Shown piece by piece: positions 14,480 through 35,703 of a stretch of DNA of 43,525 nt. Source of the DNA: Escherichia coli (lineage in GTDB: Bacteria > Pseudomonadota > Gammaproteobacteria > Enterobacterales > Enterobacteriaceae). Position numbers and translations under genes: made by a program. The notes below the pieces were generated by a model that was given only the letters and a program-made list of their open reading frames with translations, was not told where the DNA came from and did not search any database. Where the stretch lies: the NCBI RefSeq assembly GCF_003334255.1, contig NZ_QOWU01000046.1; one strand, given 5' to 3'. The first letter of the stretch is position 1. Every line of letters begins with the position of its first letter.

Positions 14480-15433
14480 ATGACAATCAACGATTCGGCA
14501 ATTTCAGAACAGGGAATGTGTGAAGAAGAACAGGTCGCGCGGATCGCGTGGTTTTACTATCACGACGGGCTGACCCAGAGCGAGATCAGCGATCGTCTCG
14601 GCCTGACACGTTTGAAAGTGTCGCGATTGCTGGAGAAAGGGCATCAGTCCGGCATTATTCGCGTACAGATTAATTCTCGCTTTGAAGGCTGTCTGGAATA
14701 TGAAACTCAATTACGTCGTCAGTTTTCGCTGCAACATGTCCGGGTGATCCCTGGGCTTGCGGATGCTGATGTCGGTGGGCGACTGGGGATAGGCGCGGCG
14801 CATATGTTGATGAGTTTACTTCAACCACAACAGATGCTGGCGATTGGTTTTGGCGAGGCAACCATGAATACGCTGCAACGCTTAAGTGGTTTTATTTCGT
14901 CACAGCAAATTCGCCTGGTCACGCTCTCCGGTGGCGTCGGTTCTTATATGACGGGAATCGGGCAGCTTAACGCGGCGTGCAGTGTGAATATTATTCCGGC
15001 TCCGTTGCGGGCATCCTCCGCTGACATTGCCCGTACGCTAAAAAATGAAAATTGCGTCAAAGATGTTCTGTTAGCCGCGCAAGCAGCGGATGTGGCGATT
15101 GTCGGCATTGGTGCTGTGAGTCAACAGGACGATGCGACAATCATTCGCTCCGGTTATATCAGCCAGGGCGAACAGTTAATGATTGGCCGAAAAGGGGCGG
15201 TTGGCGACATTTTAGGCTACTTTTTTGATGCAAAAGGTGACGTTGTCACGAATATCAAAATACATAACGAACTGATTGGCTTACCTTTAAGCGCGCTGAA
15301 GACCATACCCGTCCGGGTTGGCGTGGCAGGGGGAGAAAATAAAGCCGAAGCAATTGCCGCTGCAATGAAAGGCGGTTATATCAACGCACTGGTTACCGAT
15401 CAGGACACAGCAGCGGCGATTTTACGTAGTTAA
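14480..15433 (+). CDS. lsrR: lsr operon repressor LsrR (SorC/DeoR family)
   Basis: 317-aa ORF with an N-terminal HTH and a sugar-phosphate-binding C-terminal domain. Confidence 0.9.
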
Positions 15434-15511: not shown

Positions 15512-17104
15512 ATGGCTCGACTCTTTACCCTTTCAGAATCAAAGTACTACCTGATGGCGCTGGATGCAGGCACCGGAAGTATTCGGGCTGTGATATTCGA
15601 CCTGGAAGGCAATCAAATAGCAGTGGGACAGGCGGAGTGGCGGCATCTGGCAGTACCGGACGTTCCTGGTTCTATGGAATTTGATCTCAACAAAAACTGG
15701 CAACTGGCGTGTGAGTGTATGCGCCAGGCGCTGCACAACGCCGGCATAGCCCCGGAGTATATCGCTGCCGTTTCGGCATGTTCGATGCGTGAAGGCATTG
15801 TTTTATATAATAATGAAGGAGCCCCGATCTGGGCCTGCGCCAATGTGGATGCCAGAGCGGCACGCGAAGTTAGCGAACTTAAAGAACTGCACAACAATAC
15901 CTTTGAAAACGAAGTTTATCGCGCGACCGGACAAACACTGGCTTTAAGTGCCATCCCCAGATTACTTTGGCTGGCGCACCATCGTTCCGATATTTACCGT
16001 CAGGCATCAACCATCACCATGATCAGCGACTGGCTGGCCTATATGCTCAGCGGCGAACTGGCGGTGGATCCCTCTAACGCTGGCACCACGGGACTTCTTG
16101 ATCTAACCACCCGTGACTGGAAACCTGCATTGCTGGATATGGCTGGCCTACGTGCCGATATTCTTTCTCCTGTCAAAGAAACCGGCACATTGCTGGGCGT
16201 GGTAAGTTCACAAGCGGCGGAACTCTGCGGTCTGAAGGCGGGCACTCCGGTGGTCGTTGGAGGAGGCGACGTGCAGCTTGGTTGCCTTGGGTTAGGCGTT
16301 GTGCGTCCGGCACAAACCGCGGTTCTTGGCGGCACATTCTGGCAGCAAGTTGTAAATTTAGCCGCGCCGGTGACAGACCCAGAAATGAACGTGCGCGTTA
16401 ATCCTCATGTTATTCCTGGCATGGTACAAGCTGAATCTATAAGCTTTTTTACCGGACTCACCATGCGCTGGTTCCGCGATGCTTTCTGTGCCGAAGAAAA
16501 ACTGATTGCCGAACGTTTAGGCATCGACACCTATACGCTGCTGGAAGAGATGGCCAGTCGGGTGCCGCCTGGGTCGTGGGGCGTAATGCCGATCTTCTCC
16601 GACAGAATGCGCTTTAAAACCTGGTATCACGCTGCGCCTTCCTTTATTAACTTGTCCATTGACCCGGATAAATGTAACAAAGCGACATTGTTCCGTGCGC
16701 TGGAAGAAAATGCGGCGATTGTATCAGCGTGTAACTTGCAGCAAATTGCTGATTTCTCGAATATTCATCCTTCATCGTTAGTCTTTGCAGGCGGAGGTTC
16801 AAAAGGGAAATTATGGAGTCAAATTCTCGCTGATGTCTCGGGATTACCCGTCAATATTCCGGTGGTCAAAGAAGCCACTGCATTAGGATGTGCCATTGCA
16901 GCTGGCGTCGGTGCCGGAATTTTTTCATCAATGGCAGAAACCGGAGAACGCCTGGTTCGCTGGGAACGGACGCACACACCAGACCCGGAAAAGCATGAAC
17001 TTTATCAGGATTCACGCGATAAGTGGCAGGCAGTTTATCAGGATCAGCTGGGGCTGGTTGATCATGGACTGACGACGTCGTTATGGAAAGCGCCTGGGTT
17101 ATAG
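15512..17104 (+). CDS. lsrK: Autoinducer-2 kinase LsrK (FGGY carbohydrate kinase family)
   Basis: 530-aa ORF ([30 protein letters not shown]...). Confidence 0.9.
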
Positions 17105-17112
17105 TTTCATTG

Positions 17113-17148
17113 ACAGCCACATCATGATGACCGTGGCTGTTAGTTTTT
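17113..17148 (+). terminator. Rho-independent terminator downstream of lsrK
   Basis: ACAGCCAC-(12-nt loop)-GTGGCTGT stem followed by TAGTTTTTG. Confidence 0.65.
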
Positions 17149-17634
17149 GAGTATAGTTATTCTTATTTCCCTTCTTTTAGAGCTGGCTTGTTAAAAGCCA
17201 GCTTGCAGATTCATCGTTCCATCACCAGTACTATATTCAAGGGAAAATTGCTATTTTTCTTAAAGCATTAAGCACAACCCTTATTTTATAGCGAATATTC
17301 CTAAAGACACTAATGGATGCAAAAGGGGTTTAATAAACTTCGATTTTTAGCAATTAGTGCTATTCTTTGTTAAATATGATGATGATAATTTTCCTATTGA
17401 AAGAAACAGTTTTCTTATTAAGCAACAATAACTCATAGTTCATATTTAAATAAAATAAGAACTATGCAATTTTTAATCTATCAATTCGAAAGCATTAGCA
17501 AATTAGCCAAATTGACACCTTCCCACCTCCAACTAACACTCAATACAGACCTCTGACAATTTAATAAGTTTCATTTTTAATGTCTGACGACTCATCTCTT
17601 TCGTGGCTGTATTGTTTGTATATGGAGCGTTTAT

Positions 17635-20600
17635 ATGAATAGAATCTATCGCGTGATATGGAATTGCACTCTACAGGTATTTCAGGCCTGCTCGGAATTA
17701 ACTCGCAGGGCAGGTAAAACATCGACGGTTAATTTGCGTAAATCCTCTGGACTGACAACGAAATTCAGTAGATTGACGCTGGGTGTTTTGCTGGCACTAA
17801 GCGGTTCAGCGTCTGGTGCAAGTCTGGAAGTTGATAATGATCAGATTACCAATATTGATACTGATGTTGCTTATGATGCCTACCTGGTTGGCTGGTATGG
17901 CACTGGAGTGCTTAATATTTTGGCTGGCGGTAATGCCTCCTTAACCACTATTACTACCAGCGTCATTGGCGCTAATGAGGACTCAGAGGGCACCGTTAAT
18001 GTTTTGGGTGGCACCTGGCGATTGTATGATAGCGGAAATAATGCAAGGCCTTTAAATGTGGGTCAATCCGGAACGGGGACGCTGAATATTAAACAGAAGG
18101 GTCACGTCGATGGAGGCTATTTAAGATTAGGTTCTTCGACAGGAGGCGTCGGGACGGTCAATGTTGAGGGAGAGGACTCTGTTCTGACGACCGAATTATT
18201 CGAAATAGGTAGCTATGGCACAGGTTCATTAAATATTACGGATAAGGGTTACGTCACGAGTTCAATCGTCGCCATTTTAGGCTATCAGGCGGGCAGTAAT
18301 GGCCAGGTTGTCGTTGAAAAGGGTGGCGAGTGGCTAATAAAAAATAATGATTCCTCAATTGAATTTCAAATTGGTAATCAAGGAACTGGGGAGGCGACTA
18401 TTCGCGAGGGGGGGTTGGTTACGGCTGAAAATACGATTATCGGTGGCAATGCCACCGGTATCGGAACCCTGAATGTGCAGGATCAAGACTCTGTCATCAC
18501 GGTACGCAGACTCTATAATGGATATTTCGGTAATGGCACAGTCAATATTTCCAATAATGGACTGATTAATAACAAAGAATATTCATTGGTGGGCGTTCAG
18601 GACGGTTCCCACGGTGTCGTCAACGTGACCGATAAAGGGCATTGGAATTTCCTCGGAACGGGCGAAGCTTTCCGCTATATCTATATCGGTGATGCTGGCG
18701 ACGGTGAACTTAATGTCTCGAGTGAAGGCAAAGTAGATTCGGGAATTATCACTGCGGGGATGAAAGAAACAGGCACAGGCAACATTACTGTTAAGGATAA
18801 GAACTCCGTTATCACTAATCTCGGAACTAATCTTGGTTATGACGGCCACGGCGAAATGAATATCAGTAATCAGGGGCTTGTTGTCAGCAACGGAGGAAGT
18901 TCACTCGGTTATGGAGAAACCGGCGTCGGGAATGTCAGCATCACCACGGGGGGAATGTGGGAGGTCAATAAGAATGTCTATACCACCATTGGTGTTGCGG
19001 GCGTCGGAAACCTCAATATTAGCGATGGCGGTAAGTTCGTATCGCAAAATATTACTTTTTTGGGCGATAAAGCAAGCGGTATCGGCACACTGAACCTGAT
19101 GGATGCGACATCATCGTTCGATACTGTGGGTATCAATGTCGGTAATTTTGGTAGCGGTATCGTAAATGTCAGTAATGGTGCCACCCTTAATTCAACGGGC
19201 TATGGATTTATCGGAGGAAATGCCTCCGGTAAGGGGATAGTTAATATTTCAACGGACAGTCTCTGGAATTTAAAGACATCATCTACTAACGCACAATTGC
19301 TACAGGTCGGTGTATTAGGCACGGGTGAACTGAATATTACCACCGGAGGTATAGTTAAAGCGCGTGATACACAGATAGCTCTCAATGACAAAAGTAAGGG
19401 CGACGTGAGGGTGGATGGGCAGAACTCTCTTCTTGAAACATTCAATATGTACGTAGGGACATCTGGTACGGGTACGTTAACCCTGACGAATAACGGTACG
19501 CTGAATGTCGAAGGTGGAGAAGTTTACTTAGGTGTTTTTGAGCCTGCTGTAGGAACGCTAAACATTGGTGCTGCTCACGGTGAGGCGGCGGCAGATGCCG
19601 GATTTATCACCAATGCGACGAAAGTGGAGTTTGGTCTTGGCGAAGGCGTTTTTGTCTTTAATCATACCAATAACAGTGATGCCGGCTACCAGGTCGATAT
19701 GCTGATTACAGGTGACGATAAAGACGGAAAAGTGATCCATGATGCAGGCCATACGGTGTTCAATGCAGGGAATACTTATAGCGGTAAAACGCTGGTCAAT
19801 GACGGCCTCCTGACCATTGCGTCTCATACGGCAGATGGGGTAACGGGCATGGGGTCGAGTGAAGTAACCATTGCAAACCCCGGTACGCTCGACATTCTCG
19901 CATCAACGAACAGTGCAGGAGATTACACGCTGACCAATGCGCTCAAAGGCGATGGCTTGATGCGAGTGCAGCTGTCATCCTCCGACAAGATGTTTGGCTT
20001 TACCCATGCAACAGGGACTGAATTCGCCGGTGTTGCCCAACTGAAAGACAGTACCTTCACTCTGGAACGCGACAACACCGCTGCGCTTACTCACGCGATG
20101 TTGCAGTCTGACAGTGAAAATACCACATCGGTAAAAGTTGGAGAGCAATCCATTGGTGGACTGGCCATGAATGGAGGTACCATCATTTTCGATACGGATA
20201 TTCCTGCTGCGACGCTCGCGGAGGGATATATCAGCGTCGATACGCTGGTTGTCGGCGCGGGTGACTACACCTGGAAAGGCCGTAACTATCAGGTAAACGG
20301 GACGGGCGACGTGCTTATCGACGTGCCTAAACCGTGGAATGATCCCATGGCGAATAACCCTCTGACGACGCTCAATTTGCTGGAACACGACGATAGCCAT
20401 GTCGGCGTTCAACTGGTGAAGGCGCAAACGGTTATTGGGTCGGGTGGCTCATTAACGTTACGTGATTTACAGGGCGACGAGGTGGAAGCGGACAAAACGT
20501 TACACATTGCGCAAAACGGAACGGTGGTCGCCGAGGGTGATTATGGATTCCGCCTCACGACCGCACCAGGTAATGGTTTGTACGTTAACTATGGGCTGAA

Positions 20601-28764: not shown

Positions 28765-31044
28765 ATGAAGAAAAAAATTGAATCCTACCAGGGTGCTGCA
28801 GGTGGTTGGGGTGCTGTTAAATCCGTAGCGAATGCAGTACGTAAGCAGATGGATATACGCCAGGATGTTATTGCCATGTTTGACATGAATAAGCCAGAGG
28901 GCTTTGACTGTCCGGGTTGTGCATGGCCAGATCCTAAGCACAGTGCGTCATTCGACATTTGTGAAAACGGCGCAAAAGCAATCGCCTGGGAAGTCACGGA
29001 TAAGCAGGTAAACGCCTCTTTCTTTGCTGAGAATACGGTTCAATCATTACTTACCTGGGGAGACCACGAGCTTGAGGCTGCGGGGCGACTCACTCAGCCT
29101 TTGAAATATGATGCCGTCAGCGACTGTTACAAGCCATTAAGCTGGCAACAAGCTTTCGACGAAATTGGCGCACGCCTTCAAAGCTATAGTGATCCCAATC
29201 AGGTTGAATTCTATACTTCGGGCCGCACTTCCAATGAAGCTGCCTTTCTTTATCAGCTTTTTGCCCGTGAATACGGGAGCAATAACTTTCCCGACTGCTC
29301 CAACATGTGCCATGAACCGACAAGCGTGGGTTTGGCAGCGAGTATCGGTGTAGGTAAAGGGACCGTGTTGCTGGAAGACTTTGAGAAGTGCGATTTAGTC
29401 ATTTGCATTGGGCATAACCCTGGTACAAACCACCCTCGCATGCTGACTTCGTTGCGCGCTTTAGTGAAACGGGGAGCGAAAATGATCGCCATCAATCCTC
29501 TACAGGAACGTGGCCTGGAGCGATTTACCGCACCGCAAAACCCGTTTGAAATGCTGACGAACTCTGAGACTCAGTTGGCCAGTGCCTACTATAACGTGCG
29601 CATTGGTGGCGATATGGCGTTGCTCAAGGGGATGATGCGCCTGTTAATTGAGCGCGATGATGCTGCAAGCGCCGCAGGTCGGCCTTCATTGCTTGATGAC
29701 GAGTTTATTCAAACGCATACCGTCGGCTTTGACGAGCTACGCCGTGACGTTCTCAATTCCGAGTGGAAAGATATCGAACGTATTTCTGGACTAAGTCAGA
29801 CACAAATCGCCGAACTGGCTGACGCATATGCCGCTGCCGAACGCACCATTATCTGTTACGGAATGGGGATCACTCAGCACGAACATGGTACCCAGAACGT
29901 ACAGCAACTGGTCAATCTGCTGTTGATGAAAGGTAACATTGGCAAGCCTGGTGCGGGTATCTGCCCACTACGTGGACACTCTAATGTACAGGGCGACCGA
30001 ACCGTCGGTATCACCGAGAAACCGTCTGCAGAGTTTCTGGCTCGTCTGGGTGAGCGCTATGGCTTCACCCCACCTCATGCACCTGGACATGCTGCAATTG
30101 CCAGCATGCAAGCAATATGTACGGGGCAGGCTCGAGCATTGATCTGCATGGGGGGCAATTTTGCGCTGGCAATGCCAGATCGGGAAGCGAGCGCTGTACC
30201 GTTAACGCAATTAGATTTGGCGGTACACGTAGCCACTAAGCTTAACCGCTCTCATCTGTTGACCGCACGGCATAGCTATATTCTGCCGGTCCTGGGACGT
30301 AGCGAGATTGACATGCAAAAAAACGGTGCGCAGGCGGTAACCGTTGAGGATTCAATGTCGATGATTCATGCCTCGCGTGGCGTGTTAAAACCCGCCGGTG
30401 TAATGCTGAAATCAGAGTGTGCAGTGGTCGCGGGAATCGCGCAGGCAGCACTACCCCAGAGCGTGGTAGCCTGGGAGTATCTGGTGGAAGATTATGATCG
30501 CATTCGCAATGACATTGAAGCTGTGCTGCCAGAGTTCGCCGACTATAACCAGCGCATCCGTCATCCCGGTGGTTTTCACCTGATAAATGCAGCTGCTGAA
30601 AGGCGCTGGATGACGCCGTCAGGTAAGGCTAATTTCATTACCAGCAAAGGGCTGTTAGAAGATCCCTCTTCAGCGTTTAACAGTAAGCTGGTCATGGCGA
30701 CAGTACGCAGCCACGATCAGTACAACACGACGATTTATGGTATGGATGATCGCTATCGAGGGGTATTCGGTCAACGAGATGTGGTCTTTATGAGTGCTAA
30801 ACAAGCTAAAATTTGCCGTGTAAAAAACGGCGAAAGAGTTAATCTTATTGCGCTTACGCCAGACGGTAAGCGCAGCTCACGCCGCATGGATAGATTAAAA
30901 GTGGTCATTTACCCTATGGCTGACCGCTCACTGGTGACCTATTTTCCAGAATCGAATCACATGCTAACACTTGATAACCACGATCCATTAAGTGGCATTC
31001 CTGGCTATAAAAGTATTCCGGTTGAATTAGAACCATCAAATTAA
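28765..31044 (+). CDS. ydeP: Molybdopterin oxidoreductase (formate-dehydrogenase-like), acid-resistance protein
   Basis: 759-aa ORF ([28 protein letters not shown]...) with an N-terminal Cys cluster (CPGCAW..C) typical of molybdopterin oxidoreductases. Confidence 0.9.
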
Positions 31045-31057
31045 TGCCTCTTCTCAT

Positions 31058-31088
31058 TTCTTCTGCTGTCATCCGCACAGCAGAAGAA
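31058..31088 (+). terminator. Hairpin downstream of ydeP (weak U-tract)
   Basis: TTCTTCTGCTGT-(7-nt loop)-ACAGCAGAAGAA perfect 12-bp stem. Confidence 0.4.
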
Positions 31089-35671: not shown

Positions 35672-35703
35672 CACCCGACATAAATTCCTGTCGGGTGTTT
35701 CGT
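35672..35703 (+). terminator. Rho-independent terminator downstream of ydeM
   Basis: CACCCGACA-(8-nt loop)-TGTCGGGTG stem followed by TTTCG. Confidence 0.6.

Follow-up and report, generated by a model that had tools for sequence, protein, structure and literature searches.

Two hairpins behind lsrK in Escherichia coli: a probable intrinsic terminator followed by a polymorphic, probably near-neutral palindrome

True tandem terminators, such as rrnB T1-T2, carry a separate U-run for each of their elements. Stable stems that lack a U-run are in turn an established feature of the trimmed 3′ ends left by Rho-dependent termination (Dar & Sorek 2018, PMC6061677). We studied the two stem-loops that follow lsrK in a window of 43,525 nt, by which we mean the whole stretch of E. 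coli DNA that was analysed. The original prediction was of a canonical terminator and, 33 bp further on, a perfect 9-bp stem lacking a U-tract. Both hairpins are present where they had been placed and the second does lack a U-run on either strand; the measured gap between the two is 32 nt. Our preferred reading, with a probability of roughly 0.6, is that hairpin 1 is the terminator of lsrRK and that hairpin 2 is a labile, near-neutral palindrome which is at most a passive barrier to 3′ exonucleases. The features discussed are listed in Table 1.

Table 1. Features of the lsrK-autotransporter region and the alleles of hairpin 2 (window positions)
Feature	Position	Strand	Description
lsrR	14480-15433	+	coding sequence
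lsrK (autoinducer-2 kinase)	15512-17104	+	530-aa ORF; last gene of the lsrRK transcript
lsrK-autotransporter spacer	between lsrK and 17635		530 nt
Hairpin 1, stem-loop	17113-17140	+	8 perfect pairs, 17113-17120 ACAGCCAC with 17133-17140 GTGGCTGT; 12-nt loop
Hairpin 1, tail (putative terminator U-run)	17141-17148	+	TAGTTTTT: TAG, then TTTTT at 17144-17148
Inter-hairpin spacer	17149-17180	+	32 nt; AU-rich, pyrimidine-rich; 6-nt indel polymorphism; 7/32 columns vary
Hairpin 2	17181-17203	+	palindrome AGCTGGCTT-gttaa-AAGCCAGCT; 9 perfect pairs, 5-nt loop; conserved core of 7 bp (AGCTGGC/GCCAGCT)
Hairpin 2, allele a (window and K-12 form)	17196		A at 17196; 9-bp stem; 2245 genomes; -17.7 kcal/mol
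Hairpin 2, allele b	17196		T at 17196; U:U mismatch, 7-bp stem and 9-nt loop; 879 genomes; -14.6 kcal/mol
Hairpin 2, allele c	17196, 17187		17196T and C17187T; G.U wobble in + strand RNA; 429 genomes; -12.5 kcal/mol
Hairpin 2, allele d	17196, 17182		17196T and G17182A; A:C mismatch at second pair; 520 genomes; -7.9 kcal/mol, z = -0.36
Published Rho region coordinate	17268	+	MG1655 1598453, minus strand; 65 nt past hairpin 2
Sigma-70 promoter of autotransporter gene	17553-17581	+	Shimada et al. 2014 (PMC3946193); hexamers located in the window sequence
Autotransporter gene, ECSE_1600 family (RefSeq name), yneO in K-12	17635-23055	+	intact ORF, 1806 codons
dif (chromosome dimer resolution site)	24943-24970	+	perfect 28/28 copy, GGTGCGCATAATGTATATTATGTTAAAT

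DNA identical or near-identical to the lsrK interval bears that gene's label in RefSeq. The spacer behind it differs from that of K-12 MG1655 by one SNP, which lies outside both hairpins, so published K-12 data sets can be applied directly (K-12 position = 1615721 minus window position). An 801-nt region was found in 4230 of 5426 complete E. coli genomes. Its copy of dif shows that the window extends across the replication terminus; the order along it is lsrRK, autotransporter gene, hipBA and dif. At the very start of the window, positions 1-77 (- strand) are 100% identical to the end of an IS1 element. The autotransporter gene, a pseudogene in K-12, has suffered frameshifts or truncation in several further strains, among them O157:H7 F1273, ETEC4071 and Z0117EC0005. 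Its AT-rich leader carries insertion sequences in some strains, namely IS5 in N1241 and IS1 in LR-71-1 (window 17256-17263 and 17310-17319), and comparison with other H-NS-silenced loci suggests that such insertions could switch the gene on. Upstream of hipB, at 23144-23256, four TATCC-N8-GGATA dyads were seen against 0.04 expected by chance, and these agree with the known HipB operator pattern.

Hairpin 1 starts 9 nt past the lsrK stop codon, and five of the eight pairs in its perfect stem are G-C. RNAfold gave it -17.4 kcal/mol (z = -3.9), a stability reached by none of 200 shuffled sequences, and lengthened it by four weaker pairs (17109-17112 with 17141-17144), leaving UUUU after the last pair. 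A strict consensus terminator scan, which allows loops of at most 8 nt, did not call it, because the loop is longer than that and the T-run begins 3 nt past the perfect stem. The position next to the stem is variable: the window has C at 17132, giving an A:C mismatch, while C17132T in Z0117EC0005, Escherichia sp. E1V33 and E. whittamii gives a ninth, A-U pair. In strain DETEC-S586 a 3-nt alignment gap within 17141-17148 brings the T-run directly against the stem.

Within E. coli this structure is close to invariant. An exact 44-mer around hairpin 1 was matched in 3970 of 4178 genomes (about 95% of those having the locus), and none of the 16 arm positions varied in an alignment of seven diverse strains. 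Further afield, a scan of species-representative genomes with LsrK gave three loci from Escherichia other than E. coli. Escherichia sp. E1V33 keeps the stem of hairpin 1, with one more pair, although homology to the window ends at 17152 and the DNA downstream is unrelated. E. whittamii retains a 7-bp core, with the U-run lost or degenerate. Two sequences, one labelled E. coli SCPM-O-B-8794 (L011) and the other a metagenome contig (L089), represent a lineage diverged by about 10%, in which a 24-nt net deletion took the 3′ arm and the U-run. Hairpin 1 is thus not universal in the genus. Covariation was uninformative, with no double-sided pair change in either hairpin stem.

Taken together, hairpin 1 has a stable, GC-containing stem-loop soon after a stop codon, a U-run, and conservation of both stem and tail. 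Based on its position, stem, U-run and near-invariance in E. coli, it is best read as the Rho-independent terminator of lsrRK, a reading we take from anatomy and conservation rather than from a mapped 3′ end. The features of a terminator at 17113-17148 are therefore real, and only the word "canonical" in the original prediction was generous, given the 12-nt loop, the offset T-run and the negative strict scan.

Hairpin 2 is also stable in the window allele. For its + strand RNA the fold energy is -17.7 kcal/mol (z = -3.8), against -14.7 kcal/mol for the - strand RNA. There is no T-run after it on either strand, the 3′ flanks being TGCAGATTC, UGCAGAUUCAUC and TGCAGATTCATC on the + strand and CTAAAAGAAGG, CUAAAAGAAGG and CTAAAAGAAGGG on the - strand. 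The window contains 10 distinct hairpins with a perfect stem of 9 bp or more and a loop of 3-9 nt, compared with 1.7 +/- 1.5 in dinucleotide shuffles, an enrichment of about six-fold; even so, one hairpin of this class somewhere in 43.5 kb is expected by chance. Other perfect hairpins of 9-12 bp lie at 2524-2545, 23062-23092, 25106-25130, 30849-30874, 31058-31088 and 35672-35697; that at 23062-23092, of 11 bp, begins 7 nt past the autotransporter stop codon. An Rfam scan of 16500-18200 with E values up to 10 returned only chance-level matches to eukaryotic families. Hairpin 2 is single-copy, a 59-mer having a median of one place per genome and the 23-mer matching only itself in the window with up to three mismatches; it lacks the many copies of a REP-like repeated palindrome family, which we rejected. 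A 27-codon ORF with a TTG start begins inside the hairpin; no Shine-Dalgarno sequence was seen by eye, and the polymorphism at 17196 alters its third codon.

The perfect 9-bp stem is true of the window allele and not of the locus, being one of four alleles. By exact matching, about 97% of genomes carry one of these four, in a collection so heavily weighted to few lineages that the counts are not independent events. The 9-bp form is found in about 55% of genomes and the stem is weakened in about 45%; the fold of allele d cannot be told apart from that of shuffled sequence. Only a minority of distinct sequences form the two stem pairs next to the loop. In the seven-strain alignment, 3 of the 23 positions of hairpin 2 vary, compared with 10.8% for the whole spacer (p = 0.73), and there is no compensatory change, in that no pair is altered on both sides. 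From this background rate and the lack of compensation we conclude that hairpin 2 evolves like its surroundings. Poor conservation had been named in advance as an outcome that would speak against the second structure, and the 55% share of the 9-bp form, the 520 genomes with allele d and the background-rate variation amount to that outcome. The L011 and L089 sequences carry hairpin 2 with the T-type loop, which indicates that the perfect 9-bp stem is derived, by a single T-to-A change at 17196. The 7-bp core is unchanged in three of the four E. coli alleles and in both of these outgroup sequences, a pattern that leaves room for weak selection.

Based on these observations, we propose that nascent lsrRK RNA would fold hairpin 1, as a stem of 8-12 bp, 9 nt past the stop codon, and that the U-run would then release the transcript. 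Hairpin 2 would lie in untranslated DNA behind this terminator, acting neither as a terminator nor as a sequence-specific protein site, and would most likely be close to selectively neutral. A minority of transcripts may escape hairpin 1, and Rho would release these at some point beyond it, within the AT-rich, untranslated leader (26-35% GC) of the H-NS-associated autotransporter gene. On such escaped transcripts the 7-9 bp stem of hairpin 2 could stall 3′-to-5′ exonucleases passively, and the published data are compatible with such a barrier on read-through RNA without demonstrating it. Two observations count toward the passive-barrier idea: the published Rho region 65 nt past hairpin 2, and the fact that C17187T retains a G.U pair in + strand RNA only.

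Published transcription data at the locus are sparse. The curated Term-seq 3′ ends of Adams et al. 2021 (PMC7815308), from LB and M63 glucose, include none at either hairpin and no 15985xx or lsrK entry, and the TERMITe 2025 and SMRT-Cappable-seq supplements hold no 3′-end entry at the locus. Low lsrRK expression in those conditions could explain the missing ends. Supplementary file 2 of Adams et al. does report an "orphan" Rho termination region at MG1655 1598453 (-), with a Rho score of 4.02 (p = 6e-6). The spacer is H-NS associated and contains the autotransporter promoter CTGACA-17-TTTAAT (Shimada et al. 2014, PMC3946193, yneO-lsrK row), about 350 nt downstream of hairpin 2. In the literature on regulation of yneO, ydeK or the lsrK spacer, only an RpoD SELEX table mentions the spacer.

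These data bear on a stronger version of the barrier, in which hairpin 2 is a selected, 3′-end-protecting stem: Rho releases the transcript downstream, exonucleases trim it back to the stem, and the stem sets lsrRK mRNA stability. In its favor, the published Rho region lies just beyond the stem, U-run-less stems are known at trimmed Rho-dependent ends (PMC6061677), the C17187T allele still pairs, and the flanks are mildly richer in C than in G (C/G of 1.1-1.8 over 17150-17325). However, no Term-seq end is listed at the stem, and the Rho score rests on low read counts in 800-nt counting windows (PMC7815308): without treatment there were 48 reads upstream against 18 downstream, and with bicyclomycin 67 against 101. 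This excess of downstream over upstream reads after Rho inhibition means that Rho-suppressed transcripts starting in the AT-rich autotransporter leader explain the signal at least as well as, and in fact fit it better than, lsrK read-through. A protecting stem also sits poorly with its background rate of variation and with the 520 genomes whose allele folds no better than random. We therefore regard a selected protective role as possible but doubtful. At 17475-17575, just upstream of and over the autotransporter promoter, lies a tract strongly enriched in C and poor in G (C/G up to 5.7), which in + strand RNA would make a good candidate site for Rho loading on transcripts that enter from upstream.

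A related suggestion is that the T-to-A change at 17196, which lengthened the stem from 7 to 9 bp in a lineage including K-12, might stabilise read-through lsrRK RNA or alter autotransporter transcription. If true, hairpin 2 would be a lineage-specific tuner of AI-2 uptake regulation or of adhesin silencing, though we consider this quite improbable.

The original prediction also offered hairpin 2 as a protein-binding palindrome insulating the lsr operon from the adhesin promoter. In this form of regulation a dimeric regulator, or sigma-54 holoenzyme (TGGC-N9-GC), would control the autotransporter gene or insulate it from lsr. The perfect 9+9 dyad of the K-12 lineage invites such a view, as does, in our own reading of the sequence and as a lead only, the spacing of the GG and GC dinucleotides, which is that of sigma-54 promoters (GG-N10-GC). 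The dyad, however, is derived, and the three common variants each alter one half-site only, positions 17182, 17187 and 17196 varying one-sidedly in 429 to about 1830 genomes. A dyad-symmetric operator was rejected on the ground that the half-sites are not conserved together. For sigma-54 the spacing is right, but the -12 element reads AAGCC/ATGCC and not TTGCW (consensus TGGCAC-N5-TTGCW). Neither a site near 1598xxx nor an entry for lsrK or yneO appears in the E. coli K-12 ChIP-seq table of Bonocora et al. 2015, and the locus is likewise missing from the RpoN genomic-SELEX paper (2021), so a sigma-54 promoter was rejected as well. The palindrome lies about 350 nt upstream of the published promoter, and any insulation of lsr from that promoter would already be provided by hairpin 1. 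A protein-binding role of this kind is accordingly very unlikely.

Two further alternatives concern the RNA itself. RNase E favors single-stranded, AU-rich stretches bracketed by stems, and the segment at 17149-17180 is just such a stretch between two stems, so that an RNase might process the 3′ trailer of lsrK either there or at hairpin 2, a role that the original prediction had also offered for the second hairpin. The segment nevertheless carries indel polymorphisms, the Term-seq table (PMC7815308) lists no mapped end there, and the stem of hairpin 2 is only 7-10 bp long. Stems of 7-10 bp are too short for RNase III. We give processing at this site little chance. The other alternative, that hairpin 2 backs up hairpin 1 as the second of two tandem intrinsic terminators, draws on the stability of the second stem and its position 32 nt behind the first. 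It had been raised in the original prediction and is not supported, as hairpin 2 lacks a U-run on either strand, was not called by the terminator scan and has a weakened stem in nearly half of the genomes; such a role is extremely unlikely.

The last alternative is that hairpin 2 marks the boundary at which an autotransporter island was inserted, for instance as the relic of an attachment site or as a Xer site resembling dif. The L011 and L089 sequences, which lack the autotransporter gene, are homologous to the window exactly up to 17203 and again from 23140, the true dif is 7.7 kb away, and 8 nt of the XerD arm of dif are matched by TGTTAAAT in the loop of the T allele. What decides against it is the 83 nt that replace the island in L011 (4168-4250) and L089 (about 1298-1380), between hairpin 2 and the hipB promoter. 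This filler is 77% identical to window 22198-22289 and reads ASSM.MRHVGGHE, making it a remnant of the autotransporter beta-domain, and its junction falls inside GCCAGCT, a sequence common to the hairpin arm and to the Ala-Ser-Ser codons. The remnant and the junction together indicate that this lineage lost the autotransporter gene by microhomology deletion and that 17203 is not an insertion site. Hairpin 2 in these sequences has a 10-bp stem (-20.2 kcal/mol), which is a by-product of that deletion. None of the 5426 complete E. coli genomes has the L011-type junction, and a metagenome scan for hairpin-2-like sequences elsewhere yielded, apart from two chance matches to unrelated DNA, a single L011-like contig.

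The dif relic was sought on the + strand, the strand of dif, where a flanking relic would lie. An ungapped scan found no 28-mer with 12 or fewer mismatches over 17160-17210 or 23100-23140, and the 12 best local-alignment windows there include neither interval. Only the true dif stands out on this strand, the island borders being at background, and a Xer-integrated element was rejected. With the beta-domain remnant largely refuting an insertion boundary at 17203, this alternative has next to no chance of being correct. The DNA between lsrK and dif itself varies by species and lineage: hipBA without the autotransporter gene in L011, both in E. coli, about 170 nt only in E. whittamii and about 1.7 kb of unrelated DNA in Escherichia sp. 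E1V33, hairpin 2 being absent from the latter two.

The preferred reading, of a terminator followed by a near-neutral palindrome, matters little beyond tidying the annotation, and sequence alone is no ground for annotating the second palindrome as regulatory. The locus does illustrate two pitfalls of interpreting sequence by itself. A stem that looks "perfect" may belong to a single allele, in this case one base removed from the ancestral form, and an exact homology breakpoint at a palindrome can stem from a microhomology deletion and not from an insertion site.

In comparison with known systems, hairpin 1 resembles the Rho-independent terminators of E. coli in its GC-containing stem right after the stop codon, its five U residues and its near-identity across the species; it differs from them in its long loop, in the UAG between perfect stem and U-run, and in its unmapped 3′ end. 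Hairpin 2 shares with them a stem only. Like tandem terminators, the locus has two stem-loops in series behind a transcription unit; unlike them, only the first has a U-run. The likeness of hairpin 2 to the stem-loops at trimmed Rho-dependent ends (PMC7815308, PMC6061677) is that it is stable, free of a U-run and in untranslated RNA, with a published bicyclomycin-sensitive region 65 nt downstream. In contrast to those stem-loops, no 3′ end maps to its base, its stem is weakened or lost in many strains, and the Rho signal may belong to transcripts initiated downstream. The lsrRK transcript of E. coli, K-12 included, is thus best explained as ending at an ordinary intrinsic terminator, and the finding is an ordinary one.
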